Below, one piece after another: positions 20,731 to 42,955 of a DNA stretch of 44,183 bases. Source of the DNA: Escherichia phage Psq-1; the sequence record PQ595991.1. One strand, given 5' to 3'. The notes under the pieces are model-generated. The model had not been told where the DNA came from. It ran no database searches and saw only the letters and a list, made by a program, of their open reading frames with translations. The position numbers and the translations under genes are program-made. The stretch's first letter is position 1. Each line of letters starts with the position of its first letter.

Positions 20731-21338
20731 CCACATTTAAATTATACGGCGTTTTAGGACGTCGATTCGGTAAAGTGCATAAGCTGGATTGCTTCACTCC
20801 TGGCGAGGGTATCACCGGCCTGTGCGTGAAGTTACCCGGCTTACAGGACTTTCTAATGTCGGCACACCTGGACAATATAATGTTCAAGGTGCGCAAAGGC
20901 GACCACACGATGACCGGCTATGATGAGTTGGGCGAGTTCCACGGCAACCGCGTAGTTACCATCGCTCCGGTTATGACGGGCGCAAAAAGAGGTCTGGGCC
21001 AATTGCTGGCGGGTGTGGCAATAGTGGTGGCGTCGTTCTATACCGGCGGACTTGCTACCGCCGCTTTTGGGGCTTCGGCTGCAACCGCTGCCGCTATCGG
21101 AACGGCGACGTTTTCGTTCGGGATGTCGATGGCGCTGGGTGGCGTTATGCAATTGCTATCGCCACAGCCGAAAGGATTGCAGACACGGCAGGACGTGGAT
21201 AACAAAGCGTCGTATGCGTTCGGCGGACCGGTAAACACGACCGCACAAGGTACGGCACTTGGTGTATTATGGGGCGAGCGTGAGATCGGCGGCGCTATTA
21301 TTTCAGCCGGAATCGTAACCGAGGACTTGAACGAATGA
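20721..21338 (+). CDS. tail assembly protein (lambda I-like)
   Basis: 205 aa with Gly/Ala-rich hydrophobic core; position between K-like and J-like genes. Confidence 0.65.
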   Translation: MAMTTFKLYGVLGRRFGKVHKLDCFTPGEGITGLCVKLPGLQDFLMSAHLDNIMFKVRKGDHTMTGYDELGEFHGNRVVTIAPVMTGAKRGLGQLLAGVAIVVASFYTGGLATAAFGASAATAAAIGTATFSFGMSMALGGVMQLLSPQPKGLQTRQDVDNKASYAFGGPVNTTAQGTALGVLWGEREIGGAIISAGIVTEDLNE

Positions 21339-24300
21339 CGATTGTATACGACGTCACAGGCCATAAAGGCGGCGGAGGCAAACAGCACACCCCACAGGAG
21401 ACGCCAGATAGCCTGCATTCGCTGGCTAAAATCCGCATCTTGCTGGCGCTGGGTGAAGGGGAATTCGAAAGTATTACCAGCGCCAGCGAATTGCGGCAGC
21501 GTGTATATCTGGACGGAACACCGATCCAGAATGCTGACCTGTCCGAAAACTTCCCCGGCGCTCGTGTGGAGTTCCGCCCCGGAACCCAGCACCAGGATGT
21601 GATCCACGGATTTTCGGCGGTGGAAAGTGAGCAATCCGTAGGTGTAAAACTGGAAAACGGTACGCCGTGGGTGCGCCAGATTAACGACACCAGTCTTGAC
21701 GCCGTGCGCGTTCGCATCGGCATTCCTGCCCTGTACACTAGCGAAGATAATGGCGACCTGGTGGGCGGGCGCATCGACTATAAGATCGTTGTGTATACGG
21801 ATAACGCCGACCCGCGTGAGTTTACCTTCGCTGCCGTTGGTAAAACAATGTCGTTATACGAGCGCGATCACCGCATCGAGCTACCGCCGAACGTTAACAC
21901 CGGCTGGCGCGTGGAGGTGCACCGCATAACGGCAGACTCCACATCGGCAAAAGTGGTTAACGATATCCAGGTGCAATCTATTACTGAGATTATCGACGCC
22001 CGTCTTCGCTACCCGCTAACCGCGCTGTTGTTCGTGGAGTTCGACGCTAAAGCGTTCCAGAATATCCCGCGCGTGTCCATTAAGTGCAAAGGCCGCAAAG
22101 TTCTAATACCGAACAACTATGACCCGATTACTCATACCTATTCGGGGGACTGGGACGGCACGTTTAGACGCGCATGGACGGATAACCCTGCGTGGCACTG
22201 GTACGATATTTGTATTACGGAACGCTTCGGCCTCGGGCGCCGGATCAAACCGCAAATGCTGAACCGATACGCGCTCTACCAGATTGCGCAGCGCTGCGAT
22301 CAACTGGTCAGCGACGGCAACGGTGGTCGAGAAATCCGCTTTAAGAATGATATGTACATTCAGTCACAGACGGATGCCTGGACCGTGCTTAAGGATTTGG
22401 CTGCCATCTTCGCCGGGATGACTTGGTGGGGCAACCAGATGTTGAATATCGTCAGTGACCAACCGGTCGCAGCAGTGTCGCACACTATCACCAACGCCTC
22501 GGTAATTGATGGTAGATTCGACTACGCATCTGGCAGCCAGAAAACGCGGTACTCCACTTTCGCGGTGGCCTACGGCAACCCGAAAAACCACTATGATGAC
22601 GCTATCGCAACGGGCCAGCGCGTCGAACTGGTGCGCCGCCATAAGATTAACCGTCTTGATATCACGGCGATCGGCTGTACGCGCGAGTCAGAAGCGCAAC
22701 GCCGTGGGCACTGGGCGCTAATATCCAACCAGCTTGACCAGCAGGTCAGCTTCAAGGTTGGCATGGAAGGTCTATTCTTCATTCCGGGTAGCGTAGTCGC
22801 GATCGCAGATACTAATATTTCTGGCGGATTCGAGACTCGCGGCGGTCGCCTATTGTCAGACCCTGGCACGCGTACCGTGCTGAACACAGACAGCGAAATC
22901 ACATTCCGCCCTGGTGATAAGTTCCTGGTGCGCACCGATAGCGGAAATGTGGAGACTCGCGAGATCGCCAGCGTCAACGGCAACAAGGTCACGCTAAAAA
23001 CCGCACTGGATGCCGACCCGATTCCAGACCAACCGTTTTGCGTTGATGGCGATGATATCCAGTTGCAAAAATTCCGCATCACCGACCTTGAGTATGACGA
23101 CTCTACCAGCACTTTCTCGGTGCGCGGGATTGAGTACAACGATAGCAAGTATGATGCCGTTGATAATGGCGCTCGCCTTGATCCTGGCATCTTTACGCAA
23201 GTGCCTGACGGCGTAATGAAGGGGCCGGAGTCTGTGACCATCACACCGTCGCAGATCTCATCGCAAGGCCAGCTAATCACCAACGTGGATATTGTTTTCC
23301 CGCCGGTGAAGGATGCCGTGGTGTATGAAATCCAGTGGCGGCGTACAAGCCTGCAGAATATGGCGGTCCAGTGGGGTAACGACTGGGTGAATATCCCCCG
23401 CACGGCATCGAACGGCGCTCACATCCCTAACGTGTTCTCCGGTAACTACCAGGCGCGCGTCCGCGCGATCGGTATGGGCGAGATTTCATCCCCGTGGGTA
23501 TCGTCCGCTATCACGCCGGTGGAAGGTCGCCTCGGCGGGCTTAACGCACCAATCATCACCATCGCGATTTCGGGTCTGCATCAAATTCTATGGAAGTGGA
23601 ACCACAACAACGCCGCTACGGATATTTCTTACACCGAGCTTGAAGTCCGCAAGACGGGCGAAACGGAATGGAAGTTCTTAACAAACGTCCCGTATCCTGG
23701 CGCGGAGTACGCGCAAACGTCGCTGGAGTTCGGAATTTACCAGCAGTTGCGCGCCCGTGTAGCGGATAAAATTGGCAACCTGTCGGACTGGTCGGCCCCG
23801 TTTGAAGGGCAGGTGAGTGACAAAGTTGACGAGTACATGAAGGGGCTTGATGACGAGTTCTTGACTTCCGAGGATGGTAAACACTTCCAGGAAGCAATCG
23901 ACACCATTCCTCAAGGCATTTATGAGTCTATGCTAACGGACGCACAGCAATTGATTAACGCCCGCTCCGAGTATCAAGGGATTTATGCGGAAATCAAGGT
24001 GGCGTATAACGTTGCCACGGACGCCCACAAGGCAGTAGCGCAACTGGAAACGTTGATCGGCACACGACTTGATGATGCGGAGGCGTCAATCCACACGTTG
24101 CAGACAGCGCAAAGCACGCACGAACAAGCGTTCGCCCAGTACCAACAAACTGTCGCCGCTAAGTTTGGGGAACAGGAAGCCGCCATCCAGCAGGTACAAA
24201 CGGCAACGGCAGACGTAGCTGGCGCACTGGCGGAGTACAAGACCCAGGTCGCGGCACAGTTCGGTCAGCAGTCCGCCGCTATTGAGCAGAAGATGACGTC

Positions 24301-24781
24301 CACGTTTAACCATGCGGGTGGTAGCGCCACTTATAGCCTTAAGGCTGGCGTGACGTATAACGGGGCTTACTATGATGCCGGTATGCAGCTTTCAGTTGTT
24401 GCGGAAGGTGGCGCGGTTAAATCCCGCATCGCGTTCAAGGCGGACCAGTTCTACATCATGCACCCATCTAATGGGTCGCTTTCGTCCGCGTTTATCGTTG
24501 ACGGCGGTCAGGTGTACATTGACACCGCACGCATCAAGAACGCGTCTATCAACTTCGCGCAGATCACGGACACGCTGCAGTCGAATAACTGGAATCCAGG
24601 CAACAGTGGCTGGCGTATCGCGAAGGATGGCGGGGCGGAGTTCAACAACGTAACGGTACGAGGCAACTTGTTCGCTACTACTGGTAACTTCGGATTCTCT
24701 GGAGGGTCGGTACAGATCGACGCCACCGGCATTAACGTGCCGTTACCTGGCGGGGGTAGGGTGAAAGTGGGGACGTGGTAA
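21335..24781 (+). CDS. central tail fibre / host specificity protein (lambda J-like, 1148 aa)
   Basis: Size, position after the I-like gene, and N-terminal region typical of J-family tip proteins. Confidence 0.85.
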   Translation: MTIVYDVTGHKGGGGKQHTPQETPDSLHSLAKIRILLALGEGEFESITSASELRQRVYLDGTPIQNADLSENFPGARVEFRPGTQHQDVIHGFSAVESEQSVGVKLENGTPWVRQINDTSLDAVRVRIGIPALYTSEDNGDLVGGRIDYKIVVYTDNADPREFTFAAVGKTMSLYERDHRIELPPNVNTGWRVEVHRITADSTSAKVVNDIQVQSITEIIDARLRYPLTALLFVEFDAKAFQNIPRVSIKCKGRKVLIPNNYDPITHTYSGDWDGTFRRAWTDNPAWHWYDICITERFGLGRRIKPQMLNRYALYQIAQRCDQLVSDGNGGREIRFKNDMYIQSQTDAWTVLKDLAAIFAGMTWWGNQMLNIVSDQPVAAVSHTITNASVIDGRFDYASGSQKTRYSTFAVAYGNPKNHYDDAIATGQRVELVRRHKINRLDITAIGCTRESEAQRRGHWALISNQLDQQVSFKVGMEGLFFIPGSVVAIADTNISGGFETRGGRLLSDPGTRTVLNTDSEITFRPGDKFLVRTDSGNVETREIASVNGNKVTLKTALDADPIPDQPFCVDGDDIQLQKFRITDLEYDDSTSTFSVRGIEYNDSKYDAVDNGARLDPGIFTQVPDGVMKGPESVTITPSQISSQGQLITNVDIVFPPVKDAVVYEIQWRRTSLQNMAVQWGNDWVNIPRTASNGAHIPNVFSGNYQARVRAIGMGEISSPWVSSAITPVEGRLGGLNAPIITIAISGLHQILWKWNHNNAATDISYTELEVRKTGETEWKFLTNVPYPGAEYAQTSLEFGIYQQLRARVADKIGNLSDWSAPFEGQVSDKVDEYMKGLDDEFLTSEDGKHFQEAIDTIPQGIYESMLTDAQQLINARSEYQGIYAEIKVAYNVATDAHKAVAQLETLIGTRLDDAEASIHTLQTAQSTHEQAFAQYQQTVAAKFGEQEAAIQQVQTATADVAGALAEYKTQVAAQFGQQSAAIEQKMTSTFNHAGGSATYSLKAGVTYNGAYYDAGMQLSVVAEGGAVKSRIAFKADQFYIMHPSNGSLSSAFIVDGGQVYIDTARIKNASINFAQITDTLQSNNWNPGNSGWRIAKDGGAEFNNVTVRGNLFATTGNFGFSGGSVQIDATGINVPLPGGGRVKVGTW

Positions 24782-25998: not shown

Positions 25999-26078
25999 GG
26001 TATCATCCCCTATATTTGGTTGAGTTTTAGTATTGCACCGCTCAACCAAGAATGCAACCAATTTATGAGGATTCAGCT

Positions 26079-27719
26079 ATGGCAGCGGGTACACTATCCG
26101 TAACGAATAACAGCAAGGCGGTTGTCGGGGTAGGCACGACGTTTACCACGTTTACCGCTGGCGACTTCTTAACTCTGGTGGTGGGGCAAGTGCCTTACAC
26201 TGTTGCTATCGCGTCCGTCGAAAGCGACACCGCGATTACGCTTGTGCTTCCGTTCGACGGCCCCACGGCAACCGGCCTCGCGTGGGATGGCGTTAAGCGC
26301 GATACCATGTCGCTGGCAACGATGGGCGTAACAGTACAGGCACAGAAAGCGTTGCGCTTGATGATCGCTGACGAAAACAACTGGCGTGCAATCTTCGGAG
26401 ACGAAGAAGAAGTCACGGTAACGCTGCCGAACGGGCAAGTTATGCAAGGTATGGCATGGGGCTACCTGTCACAATTGATGAGGCAGATCGACCCCGTTGA
26501 AATGCGCAACCTGCAACAACAAGCCGCGGCATCTGAAGCAGCAGCGCAAGGATTTCGCAATGAGGCCGAAGGCTTCAAGACTGAGACGGCGGGGATCCGC
26601 GACGCCACCAACCAGATTAAGGCGGATACGCAGGCTATCCGCGACGCCACCAACCAGATTAAGGCGGATACGCAGGCTATCCACGACGCCACCAATACCA
26701 TCAAGACGCAGACGGCCCAGATTAAGACTGACACCGGCGTTATTCGCGATGAGGCCAATGCCGCGAAGGCTGAAGCGCAATCCGCCCGAGATGCCGCGCT
26801 GGGATATCGGAACGAGGCCGAACAATTCAAGAATGAGATTGACCCGTCTAACTTTCTGGCAAAGGGTGGCAACCTGGCTGGGTTAACTGACTTGTCCGAG
26901 TCGCGGGATAACTTGGGTTTAGGAGCGTTGGCGACTAAAGATTCGGCGGCGCTAAACTCCACAGATACGACCGGTATTCTGCCCTTAGATAAGGGCGGTT
27001 TAGGCGCTGGTACCATCCCTGGCGCACGGGAGACGATGCATATTTATGGTCATGACGCTACGTTCGGGACCATAAATAATATCCTCACATACTTCAACAA
27101 TATTGCGGGTAACGGCGGACTCTTCTCGTTTCGAGATGGTGCCGTTGACGCCACTAACACCTACAAATTCGGCTCAGCAATACTGTTTCGCTCAGCCGAC
27201 ACCTACGGACTGTTAAGTGTTGACCACAACAACGGAAACGTTAGAGCATCCGGTGGTGTAGTTTCTGGTGGGATCGCGGCCACAGCATACATCAACAACC
27301 TGTGGGGTACGCGTAACACCACCGTAGACGGTAACGGGTTTATTAAAACCGCGTCGCCCATCGTCAAGATCTTCAGTGACGGTGCCGCGGAGACTAACGA
27401 CGAGGCCGAAGGCGTTACGGTGACTCGCATATCTGCGGGGGTGTATGTTGTGGAGGGGTGTCTAGGCCTCAACTCAGACCCATCCTGGGGCGGGCCTGAC
27501 GGCGGGATTGAGATTCCGACGGACGTGAACAAGCAGCCTCGTTTATGGGTTGATTATAAAGTGCGCGCTGACGGCTCTGTGGAGGTACGCACATACCACC
27601 GAACACACCCACACGCTCCAGCATTCGCAAGAAATGAGATAGAAGGTGTGGCGGAAGGGGACCCGGTTGATATACCGCGTGGCACGTTCATATCTGTTCG
27701 GGTTAATATGCCTGAGTAA
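26079..27719 (+). CDS. tail fibre protein (546 aa)
   Basis: ATG 26079 with GAGGA upstream; coiled-coil shaft with 14-aa repeats (IRDATNQIKADTQA), Gly-rich C-terminal domain. Confidence 0.7.
   Translation: MAAGTLSVTNNSKAVVGVGTTFTTFTAGDFLTLVVGQVPYTVAIASVESDTAITLVLPFDGPTATGLAWDGVKRDTMSLATMGVTVQAQKALRLMIADENNWRAIFGDEEEVTVTLPNGQVMQGMAWGYLSQLMRQIDPVEMRNLQQQAAASEAAAQGFRNEAEGFKTETAGIRDATNQIKADTQAIRDATNQIKADTQAIHDATNTIKTQTAQIKTDTGVIRDEANAAKAEAQSARDAALGYRNEAEQFKNEIDPSNFLAKGGNLAGLTDLSESRDNLGLGALATKDSAALNSTDTTGILPLDKGGLGAGTIPGARETMHIYGHDATFGTINNILTYFNNIAGNGGLFSFRDGAVDATNTYKFGSAILFRSADTYGLLSVDHNNGNVRASGGVVSGGIAATAYINNLWGTRNTTVDGNGFIKTASPIVKIFSDGAAETNDEAEGVTVTRISAGVYVVEGCLGLNSDPSWGGPDGGIEIPTDVNKQPRLWVDYKVRADGSVEVRTYHRTHPHAPAFARNEIEGVAEGDPVDIPRGTFISVRVNMPE
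26595..26678 (+). repeat. perfect 42-bp tandem duplication inside the tail fibre gene
   Basis: ATCCGCGACGCCACCAACCAGATTAAGGCGGATACGCAGGCT twice (26595-26636, 26637-26678), followed by a degenerate third unit. Confidence 0.85.
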
Positions 27720-27731
27720 AGCATAATGCGA

Positions 27732-27753
27732 AGGGGCCATTCGGCCCCTTTTT
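27732..27753. terminator. bidirectional rho-independent terminator
   Basis: AGGGGCC-ATTC-GGCCCCT hairpin followed by TTTTT, between convergent genes. Confidence 0.6.
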
Positions 27754-39312: not shown

Positions 39313-39822
39313 TTAGTCTTCCAGTTCGAAATAGGTTTCGACGATTTCTTTCAGATCTTTGTGGAAGTCTTCGACGTCGTCATCTTCCAGTTTAGCGATT
39401 GATTTGATCTCGAACGATTCCAGCAGGTCGTCAAATTCGTCGTTGGCGTCGTCGTCATCACCACCGGCGATAATCGCGGCATACTGTTTGATTTCGTCGC
39501 GCATCTCTGCCAGCGGATCGGCATCTTTCTTACCTTTGCCTTTCGCCGTGGCTTTTTTACCTTTCGCCGGTTTTTCGTCTTCGGCTTCATCGTCGTCATC
39601 TTCTACGACTTCTTTTTTGGCCTTACCTTTCGCCGGTGCTTTTTTGGTTTTCGCCGGTGCTTCGTCTTCAGCGTCGTCATCTTCTACGACTTCTTTTTTC
39701 GCCTTAGACGGCTTCTTGTCTTCCTGCGTACCAACGGCAGCGCCAACGGTTTCATAATGTTTAGCGATTGTTTCCAGTGCTACTACGCCGCGAGTAATCA
39801 GGTTTACGATTTGTTCAAACAT
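39313..39822 (-). CDS. highly charged tandem-repeat protein (169 aa)
   Basis: ATG 39822 with GGAGA upstream; two 26-27-aa repeats KKEVVEDDD-EDE-PAK-KKA-AKGK-KK plus acidic D/E runs; nucleotide-level tandem repeat at about 39540-39720. Confidence 0.5.
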   Translation of the reverse strand: MFEQIVNLITRGVVALETIAKHYETVGAAVGTQEDKKPSKAKKEVVEDDDAEDEAPAKTKKAPAKGKAKKEVVEDDDDEAEDEKPAKGKKATAKGKGKKDADPLAEMRDEIKQYAAIIAGGDDDDANDEFDDLLESFEIKSIAKLEDDDVEDFHKDLKEIVETYFELED

Positions 39823-40223: not shown

Positions 40224-40553
40224 ATGAATATCGACGACGCAATCGAAATGTTAACTAAGACTGTTTGCAGTGAGACTAGCCGGTCTTGGGCATATACAGA
40301 TGCCGTTGGGGCGGTGCTATTTGAAATCGAACGTCTGCGACTTACCGAAAAAGAATTGCGCGCGAAGCTGGAATTACTCAACGGTACGGCAGCCAGCAAG
40401 CTGCAAAAGCACAATGAAGAAATGGAAGAATACAAAAAACAGGTTATCCGTTTGCGCGATGAGGGGAAGTCATGGGCGATGATCGCCGAGTTGACAGGAA
40501 TTAATCAGAGCACCGTGCGCTCCTGGGTACGCAATAACAAAACTTCGAAATAA
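40224..40553 (+). CDS. HTH domain protein, putative regulator (109 aa)
   Basis: C-terminal HTH GKSWAMIAELTGINQSTVRSWVRNNK; coiled-coil middle; first gene of the plus-strand early unit. Confidence 0.5.
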   Translation: MNIDDAIEMLTKTVCSETSRSWAYTDAVGAVLFEIERLRLTEKELRAKLELLNGTAASKLQKHNEEMEEYKKQVIRLRDEGKSWAMIAELTGINQSTVRSWVRNNKTSK

Positions 40554-40723
40554 GGCAACGGCAATGAGCTTAATTAAATTCGCTGTAACAAGACCCTCAT
40601 GGGCGATGATCGCCGAGTTGACAGGAATTAATCAGAGCACCGTGCGCTCCTGGGTACGCAATAACAAAACTTCGAAATAAGGCAACGGCAATGAGCTTAA
40701 TTAAATTCGCTGTAACAAGACCC
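40470..40723. repeat. exact 127-bp tandem duplication (40470-40596 and 40597-40723)
   Basis: Both copies read identically by eye; they span the last 28 codons of the HTH gene and the first 11 codons of the primase gene. Confidence 0.9.
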
Positions 40724-42955
40724 GCTAAAAAAGGCGAAAAAGCCAGGGCGGAAAACTTCCAGATGACAACTGATGAATTTTTCGAATTTATCAATGACGC
40801 GAAAGAAATCTCATCGGTGCACATCAACAAGACCGAGGATAAAGCTGAGTATGCGCGCCGCAAGCGCAAGGCCGATGGCATCGTGGCATATACCAGTGAC
40901 GGCCTACGCCGTAAGACCAGCGCGGTGGACCGCTCGATCCTGTTCTTTGATATTGACCGCACCGACACTCGCACCTTGCGCCGCTGCCGTAAGGCGTTCA
41001 TTGACGCGGGTCTGGAACACGTATTCCACACAACCACCGGCGATCGCCACCCGCTGAAAGGCGGCACGCGTTGCGCCCGTTTCCTTGTGCTCACAGATAA
41101 ACCAGTACCGGCGGAAGACCTGGGCCGCGTCCAGTACGCGCTGTTAGACCAACTTGGTCTGTCAGATGTGGACTTCGACGATTGTACGAAGGACACAAAC
41201 CGTCTTATGTACCTGCCACACCAGCAGTCTGTCATTAAGTGCCACCACGGCAAACGTGCCAATGTGCGGCGTCTGCTACGCCTGGCGGATAAGCTGGGAG
41301 TGGAGAAAGAGGAAGTACGCCGCGAGCTTACCCAGGGCGACGACGCAGTGGCGGACGGGATTCTGGACTGGTGCTTCCAGGCAGGATTCGAGGAGTTATC
41401 TTCCGGTCGCGGTTATGAAGTTCCGTGCCCGAACGAACATCTGCACAGCGGCGAAGGGTCGACGGCTATCATGGTCAAGGATGGCGAGATCCGTTTCAAG
41501 TGTATGCACACCGGCAACGAGTGTTGCTCGGAGCTAAATAGACACCAGCACCTTGCGCTACGTCTCATCGGGATACCGGACCACCTGAACGTCGAGCCGC
41601 ACAACATGTCACGTAAGCAAATCGCCGCCATCCTGCCAGGTCTGGACGACGAGGAAGTCGAATCCTTATATGACCACATTGTTGATGCGGTTGGCGACGG
41701 CGAAGAATATGGCGTGTGCACCGATGCGGATCTTGATAACGAGCCGGTTGCGCTGTTCAGTAAGCACGACCCGATCATCGAGGGGTTGATTAACTTTAAA
41801 TCGACCTGGTACATGGCGGGTGAGTCGAATATCGGTAAGTCTTTCTATGTGCTGGGGCAGATGGGCGCGGTTGCCGCCGGTATTCCGTTTGGCGGTGCGA
41901 AGGTCGTCCAGTCGCATTGCTTCTATTTCGATGCGGAAGGCGGCGAAGCCTCCAACCAGCGCAAAGAAGCATTGCAGATTAAATATGAGCACGACCTGGA
42001 CAAGCTGCACATTATAGACCTGCAGTCACGCGGCTGGGATATCACCAGCAAGTCCGGTTTGCGCGAAGTTATCAGCTTTATCAACCGCACCGCTAACGGC
42101 GAACCGGTTGGCCTGGTGGCGTTCGACTCACTTAACCAGACTGTTGCGCTGCGGTCCGCCGATGCTAAACCGTTTGACGAGAACAACGCCAGCGATATGG
42201 GAGAAGTGGTCAAAGCGCTGAAAGCCATTGCGGAAAATACAGGTGGCAGTGCGGGCGTCATCCACCACCCGGCGAAAGGTGCAAACGGCAGCAGAACCCC
42301 ACGCGGATCCGGCGCACTGCATGGTGCTGTCGATTCAGCTTTCTTCCTGGAACAGCCGGACGACAACCAGCCAGGACAACTCAACCTGTATCACGAAAAA
42401 TCACGTAATGGCATCAAGCAAGCGCCGCGTGGCTTCGTCCTGCTCAAGTGCAAGGTGGAGGTGGATCTCCGCAAGTCAGAAGCGTTCGCGTCGCACCAGT
42501 CCACCAGCACCGGGCCGGACTTCGGAGACGTCGTTGCCGGTTGGGACGTCAAACCAATTGCGTCCACCCCGCGCGACGAGACTCTGTACCTCGTACCAGT
42601 AGCCCTGGCACCGTTCGCTATAGAACAGGCAAAGGCCGCTGGCAAAGCCGCAGTTAAGGAAGAAAACGCCGCCGGTCCGCGCAACGAAAAAGAGAAAGTG
42701 CTTTATGCGGCCCTGGAAAAACTGATGGAAGATAACCCTAACCATACTGGATTCAGTAAATCGGCAATTGTCCGCCAGGCGGGACTCGCGAAGGGTGGTA
42801 CTTCGACGAAAGCAATCGACGATATGGTGGAGCGTGGCGTGATTGGTTTTTATACAGATCCGCACACCGGGGCCATATATGGGTCGTCGAATTTAGTCAT
42901 CAAATCGGATATTCCCATAACGCTTTCGGCGACCGACGACGACCTGAAGGATTAA
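40691..42955 (+). CDS. DNA primase/helicase-type replication protein (754 aa)
   Basis: Zn-binding-like HLHSGEGS...FKCMHTGNECC; P-loop GESNIGKS and Walker B-like LVAFDSLNQ in the C-terminal half. Confidence 0.6.
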   Translation: MSLIKFAVTRPAKKGEKARAENFQMTTDEFFEFINDAKEISSVHINKTEDKAEYARRKRKADGIVAYTSDGLRRKTSAVDRSILFFDIDRTDTRTLRRCRKAFIDAGLEHVFHTTTGDRHPLKGGTRCARFLVLTDKPVPAEDLGRVQYALLDQLGLSDVDFDDCTKDTNRLMYLPHQQSVIKCHHGKRANVRRLLRLADKLGVEKEEVRRELTQGDDAVADGILDWCFQAGFEELSSGRGYEVPCPNEHLHSGEGSTAIMVKDGEIRFKCMHTGNECCSELNRHQHLALRLIGIPDHLNVEPHNMSRKQIAAILPGLDDEEVESLYDHIVDAVGDGEEYGVCTDADLDNEPVALFSKHDPIIEGLINFKSTWYMAGESNIGKSFYVLGQMGAVAAGIPFGGAKVVQSHCFYFDAEGGEASNQRKEALQIKYEHDLDKLHIIDLQSRGWDITSKSGLREVISFINRTANGEPVGLVAFDSLNQTVALRSADAKPFDENNASDMGEVVKALKAIAENTGGSAGVIHHPAKGANGSRTPRGSGALHGAVDSAFFLEQPDDNQPGQLNLYHEKSRNGIKQAPRGFVLLKCKVEVDLRKSEAFASHQSTSTGPDFGDVVAGWDVKPIASTPRDETLYLVPVALAPFAIEQAKAAGKAAVKEENAAGPRNEKEKVLYAALEKLMEDNPNHTGFSKSAIVRQAGLAKGGTSTKAIDDMVERGVIGFYTDPHTGAIYGSSNLVIKSDIPITLSATDDDLKD

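Follow-up and report, generated by a model that had tools for sequence, protein, structure and literature searches.

Does a perfect tandem duplication within the shaft of a phage tail fiber alter the length of that fiber? The question is raised by a 42-bp repeat in the genome record of Escherichia phage Psq-1 (PQ595991.1), the 44,183 nucleotides of which are referred to here as the window. An initial annotation of the same DNA reported two identical units within the coiled-coil region of a tail fiber, took their identity as evidence of a recent event, and proposed that unit number could vary between isolates and change fiber length. We find that the duplication is real and derived, that it is paired with an equal loss nearby, and that the shaft is not longer.

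The repeat lies in the lateral tail fiber gene of a Dhillonvirus

A megablast search with the gene assigned it to Dhillonvirus, a genus of small E. coli siphoviruses. The best match was Escherichia phage vB_EcoS_011D5, with 97.3% nucleotide identity across the full 1668-nt query in a single ungapped piece; the matching gene is annotated there as "putative tail tip protein" (protein QMP82830.1). The identification of the product as a tail fiber held up, with matches to phrog_1591 (E 5e-89) and, for the C-terminal domain, to PF25670 (E 1e-59). Translation starts at ATG 26079 (MAAGT...), which is preceded by a GAGGA Shine-Dalgarno sequence 7 nt upstream and is the codon annotated in relatives, and an upstream ATG at 26052 was rejected on these grounds. 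The exact 546-aa protein was absent from a collection of 15 billion proteins searched by exact-sequence look-up.

A gpJ-type central fiber gene (21335-24781) and minus-strand genes for a DUF6453 membrane protein and a Cor-like lipoprotein are found upstream of the fiber gene, and a convergent gp26-like gene is found downstream. The same gene order is annotated in 011D5, Bas83, JL1, and others. The BASEL papers name this gene lateral tail fiber and propose that the lateral fiber engages O-antigen, the primary receptor, before the central fiber binds porin (PMC8594841, PMC11990801).

The gene product consists of an N-terminal anchor, a helical shaft, and a distal part (Table 1). The N-terminal end is the conserved virion-attachment end of the fiber according to the BASEL papers (PMC8594841), and an alignment of 15 homologs contained 66 invariant columns within aa 1-130. 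A 284-aa query covering anchor and shaft matched 413 library proteins at E<=1e-10; most of the matches listed span only residues 1 to about 135, and close homologs are 81-94% identical to the query. Residues 1-73 of the anchor (26079-26297) are weakly but significantly similar (E 6.3e-5) to the N-terminal 73 residues of PDB 23gd_B, "Distal tail protein gp20", which hints at an attachment module common to the two proteins.

At the other end, aa 360-545 (27156-27716, ~185 aa) are homologous to residues 601-784 of the 786-aa chain PDB 7z47_D (also 7z4a, 7z4b, and 7z4f), a "Putative tail fiber" (E 6.7e-67). The homology covers the PF25670 domain and is confined to the distal domain, the shaft and N-terminal anchor of that protein being unrelated to those of Psq-1; this suggests a distal module common to both fibers. 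Different distal modules follow the shaft in relatives of Psq-1, as is characteristic of an exchangeable C-terminal module. GenBank records named Campylobacter phage A144, an Acinetobacter phage, and two Sodalis phages also match this fiber gene, A144 with 88% nucleotide identity in the shaft region; these records may be mislabelled or contaminant sequences.

Table 1. Features of the Psq-1 lateral tail fiber gene, with positions in the window
Feature	Position	Strand	Basis
Lateral tail fiber gene	26079-27719	+	546 aa plus stop; phrog_1591 "tail fiber protein", E 5e-89; PF25670
N-terminal anchor domain, aa 1-137	26079-26489	+	Conserved
17-heptad alpha-helical shaft, DPVEMRN ... FKNEIDP	26490-26846	+	Hydropathy, AF2, whole-heptad length differences
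Array-bracketing repeat, proximal (AAQG FRNEAEG FKTE)	26541-26586	+	Direct repeat family D2
Module A copy 1 (IRDATNQ IKADTQA), ancestral	26595-26636	+	Sequence and position as 011D5 heptads 5-6
Module A copy 2, derived, at ancestral module B position	26637-26678	+	42/42 nt identical to copy 1; in no relative
Out-of-register tract, 98 nt	26637-26734	+	98/98 identical to 011D5-type sequence 42 nt upstream
Module B (IHDATNT IKTQTAQ), shifted 42 nt 3' into ancestral module C position	26679-26720	+	Equals 011D5 heptads 7-8
Array-bracketing repeat, distal partner (AALG-YRNEAEQ-FKNE)	26793-26838		78% nt identity to proximal repeat; spacing 252 nt = 12 heptads
C-terminal PF25670 domain, putative receptor-binding distal part	27315-27716	+	E 1.3e-59, aa 422-555 of 555-aa ORF
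Intrinsic-terminator-like hairpin	27730-27751

The exact repeat spans 88 nt and comprises two copies of one module

The two 42-bp units are identical at every nucleotide, and both are in frame, each encoding IRDATNQIKADTQA. Identity at an offset of 42 nt extends over 46 nt, so that the exact repeat is 88 nt long and ends with ATCC at 26682. Tandem Repeats Finder called positions 26595-26695 with a period of 42, 2.4 copies, 98% matches, and a score of 195. The third unit (26679-26720, IHDATNTIKTQTAQ) has 27 of 42 nt and 8 of 14 aa in common with the first, which confirms the description of a perfect pair followed by a diverged unit. Given the base composition, ~3e-21 perfect 42-nt tandem pairs at period 42 would be expected by chance in the whole window, and 1.6e-18 at any period up to 500. 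Exact copies of the 42-nt unit number only 2.1, short of the array of several identical units that defines a VNTR or contingency locus.

Other roles for the repeat were considered. No promoter-like site, terminator-like site, or inverted repeat was found within it, and a regulatory or RNA role was rejected for that reason. A diversity-generating retroelement was set aside because the copies are adjacent and identical, with no separated template and variable pair carrying adenine-specific differences. Minus-strand or alternative-frame ORFs overlapping the repeat (26462-27016, 26469-26825, and 26497-26886) were treated as by-products of repetitive, G+C-rich coding sequence.

The shaft is an uninterrupted helix of 17 heptads

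The shaft runs from DPVEMRN to FKNEIDP without interruption, a length of ~119 aa. In its 14 core heptads, position 1 is F, I, A, or Y, position 2 is R or K (H once), and position 5 is T or A (I once). The hydropathy power spectrum peaks at a period of 3.5 residues (power 91.7), a value reached in 1 of 5000 shuffles. An AF2 monomer model contains one continuous helix at aa 139-253, with block-mean pLDDT of 72-96 over aa 141-250; the model is usable for this helix only, as mean pLDDT is 49 and the remainder is poorly modelled. Fourteen residues of alpha helix correspond to a rise of ~2 nm. The shaft sets the distance between the N-terminal anchor and the distal, putatively receptor-binding part, and from fiber biology we infer that it is a trimer.

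Placement of the repeat within a coiled coil, as initially annotated, is thus supported by hydropathy and by the AF2 model, and an elongated N-terminal coiled coil has been described for the homolog Gp29 of Bas85 (RuthEpting) (PMC11990801). A PDB sequence search with the shaft returned no significant homolog; the sole alignment was to the N-terminal region of T7 gp17 (E 0.42).

Psq-1 has gained one module and lost another

Shaft DNA was compared among 011D5, L-h 1M, SECphi4, Henu5_1, fifteen IMG/VR contigs, two metagenome contigs, and ten further GenBank Dhillonviruses, and protein representatives from two large libraries were added to the comparison. The core of the canonical shaft reads FRNEAEG FKTETAG, followed by the two-heptad modules A (IRDATNQ IKADTQA), B (IHDATNT IKTQTxQ), C (IKTDTQA IKDQTNQ), and D (IKTDTGV IRDEANx) and onward. 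The order is A-B-C-D in 011D5 and the other canonical 17-heptad relatives, versus A-A-B-D in Psq-1. Module A is single copy in every relative examined, which, together with the perfect identity of the two copies, marks the duplication as the derived state and agrees with the claim of a recent event.

A heptad-by-heptad DNA comparison located the rearrangement. Heptads 0-6 of Psq-1 equal heptads 0-6 of 011D5, and heptads 7-10 and the first 14 nt of heptad 11 equal 011D5 heptads 5-8 and the first 14 nt of heptad 9. Heptads 9-10 of 011D5, its module C (IKTDTQA IKGQTDQ, IKTDTQAIKGQTDQ), are missing from the window. A sliding-window scan also detected the tract in the Psq-1 shaft, with a shift of -42. 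Its left boundary falls within the 4-nt ATCC, and its right boundary falls within ATTAAGACTGACAC, where module C is lost. Without gaps, the Psq-1 and 011D5 genes differ by 47 mismatches, 30 of them at 26641-26716. Modelling a 42-nt gain and a 42-nt loss leaves 17 mismatches in 1599 nt, or 98.9% identity.

Because the 42-bp gain of A is offset by the 42-bp loss of C, shaft length is unchanged. The expectation that the duplication would lengthen the fiber was therefore not borne out: as in 011D5, there are still 17 heptads in the shaft and 546 aa in the protein. Nor did repeat number vary in related genomes, since unit A was single copy in all relatives found.

The A-A-B-D arrangement is a new allele

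No match above 90.1% to the repeat region was found in GenBank phages. An exact 29-mer from unit A had a single occurrence in each of four contigs, two from IMG/VR and two metagenomic, and was absent from the cellular genomes of GTDB. A fully degenerate probe for the A-to-A junction (DTQA-IRDAT, all synonymous codons) gave zero matches in IMG/VR. It gave three in bacterial MAGs (Acidimicrobiaceae, Geobacter, and Bryobacteraceae), which were taken as unrelated chance matches. A-A-B-D is a new allele; the kind of event that it represents, intragenic repeat recombination in a fibrous coiled-coil protein, is already well known. A literature search for heptad duplication in tail fibers found nothing specific.

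Heptad number varies across the genus in whole heptads

Although unit A does not vary, the broader proposal that shaft length can differ between phages is upheld at the level of the genus, where heptad number ranges from 4 to 20. The 41 distinct arrays contain 4, 5, 11, 13, 14 (five arrays), 15 (three), 16 (two), 17 (25), 19, or 20 heptads. All differ by whole heptads, and none is out of phase. Seventeen heptads is the modal length (61% of distinct arrays) and is found with many different distal modules.

Out-of-register tracts were sought in the DNA of the 17-heptad class by sliding-window comparison with canonical references. They were present in 6 of 18 sequences, Psq-1 included, and all six keep 17 heptads. 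The shifts are -42 in Psq-1, +42 in an IMG/VR contig (L023), Bas83, and Pandora71, -21 in JL1, and both -21 and +42 in bov22_1. Pandora71 carries a perfect 42-nt duplication of a module other than A and still has 17 heptads. The 20-heptad shaft of CHD5UKE2 (L029) contains a perfect 63-nt duplication; NHEP3, with 19 heptads, and P0023, with 16, are further cases of uncompensated change. Shorter runs of identity occur within the shafts of Bas83, bov22_1, JL1, and SECphi4, and P0020 has a very short patch, ETAGIR, copied from sequence 14 aa upstream.

The array is bracketed by nested direct repeats, namely, the IDP motifs at 26490-26498 and 26838-26846 and the pair listed in Table 1. Array-less homologs read QIDPSKFLAK, which equals a join of the two bracketing IDP motifs. 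These homologs look like products of deletion between the IDP motifs, and those with very short arrays, such as phage mckay with only 5 heptads, look like products of deletion between the two copies of the pair in Table 1.

Origin of the rearranged array

We favor, with moderate confidence, a single recent patch between nearly identical heptad modules, made out of register by recombination or template switching, and we consider the change probably neutral. The ancestral shaft would have read A-B-C-D, with nearly identical modules of two heptads (42 nt) each. Template switching or gene conversion, displaced by exactly one module, would then have written a patch copied from A-B over B-C. The product would be A-A-B-D, with a perfect pair of A modules at 26595-26678, B one position down, and C lost, and with heptad phase and total shaft length kept. 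With only 4 nt of identity, the left junction points to slippage or template switching more than to classical homologous exchange or gene conversion. An ACT/ACA marker at the right junction is nondiagnostic, as ACT occurs in both heptads of some relatives. The modules are structurally equivalent and have common core positions, so that the exchange was most likely neutral for fiber function.

That one event rather than two occurred is inferred from several observations. Two independent slippage or unequal-recombination events, namely, a 42-bp duplication of A and a later 42-bp deletion of C between the ATTAAGACTGACAC repeats, would yield the same array, the deletion having been kept by selection for the modal 17 heptads. 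The 4-nt microhomology at the duplication junction and the 14-nt homology at the deletion junction are compatible with such a history, as is the prevalence of 17 heptads across many different distal modules. Uncompensated duplications and deletions are also seen in relatives, which counts against a single patch: besides the 20, 19, and 16 heptads of CHD5UKE2, NHEP3, and P0023, several arrays have 14 to 16. We nonetheless regard this history as less likely, since a lineage that has diverged from 011D5 by only ~1% would have had to undergo two rare events inside 130 bp, and no single-step intermediate was found among GenBank phages, IMG/VR, metagenome contigs, or GTDB. The five other lineages with shifted tracts are likewise length neutral, and a single shifted patch explains this without selection. 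The existence of viable isolates whose shafts range from 5 to 20 heptads also speaks against strict selection on length. A shifted patch preserves length by construction, in keeping with the repeated appearance of length-neutral shifted tracts among relatives.

Two further explanations appear highly improbable. The array could be an assembly or sequencing artifact in a genome that is truly A-B-C-D, and a second tandem duplication in the same record (127 bp at 40470-40723) suggests that the record was not fully curated. However, the change preserves frame, heptad phase, and gene length, and assemblers collapse short tandem repeats rather than create them. The longest exact stretch common to the canonical modules, ~17 nt, is too short to mislead a graph with k>=21, the 88-bp repeat is shorter than a typical read, and analogous structures are found in independently sequenced phages. 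It is just as hard to credit that the repeat is a hypervariable locus of the contingency type, at which unit number changes often within populations and tunes fiber reach, for example, to O-antigen or capsule thickness. The range of heptad numbers in the genus and the proposed engagement of O-antigen by this fiber (PMC8594841, PMC11990801) would accord with such tuning. Against it stand the low copy number of the unit, its single-copy state in every relative, the zero net length change in Psq-1, and the concentration of most distinct arrays at one length despite very different distal domains.

Beyond the proposed single patch in Psq-1, we tentatively suggest that Dhillonvirus shaft modules may evolve in concert through frequent length-preserving out-of-register copying, possibly driven by the recombination functions of the phage itself, and that stabilizing selection may keep the shaft at 17 heptads. 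Should this be so, the most recent case would be Psq-1, whose 98-nt tract shows zero divergence. The shaft would then be a natural system for rates of short-homology recombination in a virulent phage and for asking whether fiber reach is tuned.

Comparison with other fibrous proteins and implications

The closest comparison is with 011D5 and other Dhillonvirus fibers, such as Gp29 of Bas85, which are products of the same gene with a 17-heptad shaft. Psq-1 and 011D5 also have protein length and local synteny in common (gpJ, DUF6453 membrane protein, Cor-like lipoprotein, fiber, and gp26-like gene). They differ in module order, and no other sequence among GenBank phages or in IMG/VR was found to contain the A-to-A junction of Psq-1.

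Streptococcal M proteins contain in-frame, heptad-compatible tandem blocks in which recombination and slippage generate duplications, deletions, and homogenized copies. Like the Psq-1 shaft, they represent intragenic repeat recombination in a fibrous coiled-coil surface protein. Their blocks are multicopy, however, and variation in size and antigenicity is selected, whereas the Psq-1 shaft has two copies, is unchanged in size, and shows no sign of selection. The proximal rod of T7 gp17, T4 fibritin, and the P22 gp26 needle resemble Psq-1 in having a helical heptad rod between the N-terminal end that attaches to the virion and a distal binding domain; in the case of T7 gp17, the shaft alignment noted above demonstrates no homology.

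The significance of the Psq-1 allele is slight outside this gene family, and only the recurrence of length-preserving out-of-register copying is mildly novel. Within the family, Psq-1 provides a clean, dated case of such copying between 42-nt modules in a virulent coliphage, with 4 and 14 nt of homology at the junctions. It also illustrates that a perfect tandem duplication in a fiber shaft need not alter length and that predictions of length polymorphism need a check of the whole array. For phage engineering, the invariably in-phase range of 4 to 20 heptads seen in nature indicates that the shaft tolerates resizing by whole heptads.

Other repeats in the record

Position 1 of the window coincides with the ATG start codon of a conserved gene. 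The perfect 127-bp tandem duplication (40470-40596 = 40597-40723) covers the final 28 codons of a gene for a 109-aa HTH protein (40224-40553, phrog_9366), an intergenic spacer, and the first 12 codons of a helicase-primase gene (40691-42955), and it yields a 38-codon chimeric ORF. An 801-bp query across the duplication corresponded to ~674 bp in 11 of 12 Dhillonviruses among the matches listed. The duplication probably represents an assembler overlap (k=127) that escaped trimming and ended up inside a rotated circular contig, in which case the true genome would be ~44,056 bp; it serves as a practical warning about the assembly of this record. An imperfect tandem repeat of two 81-bp units (39539-39706; 83% matches, 6% indels) is located within a lysine- and acid-rich minus-strand ORF of unknown function (39313-39822, phrog_3127).
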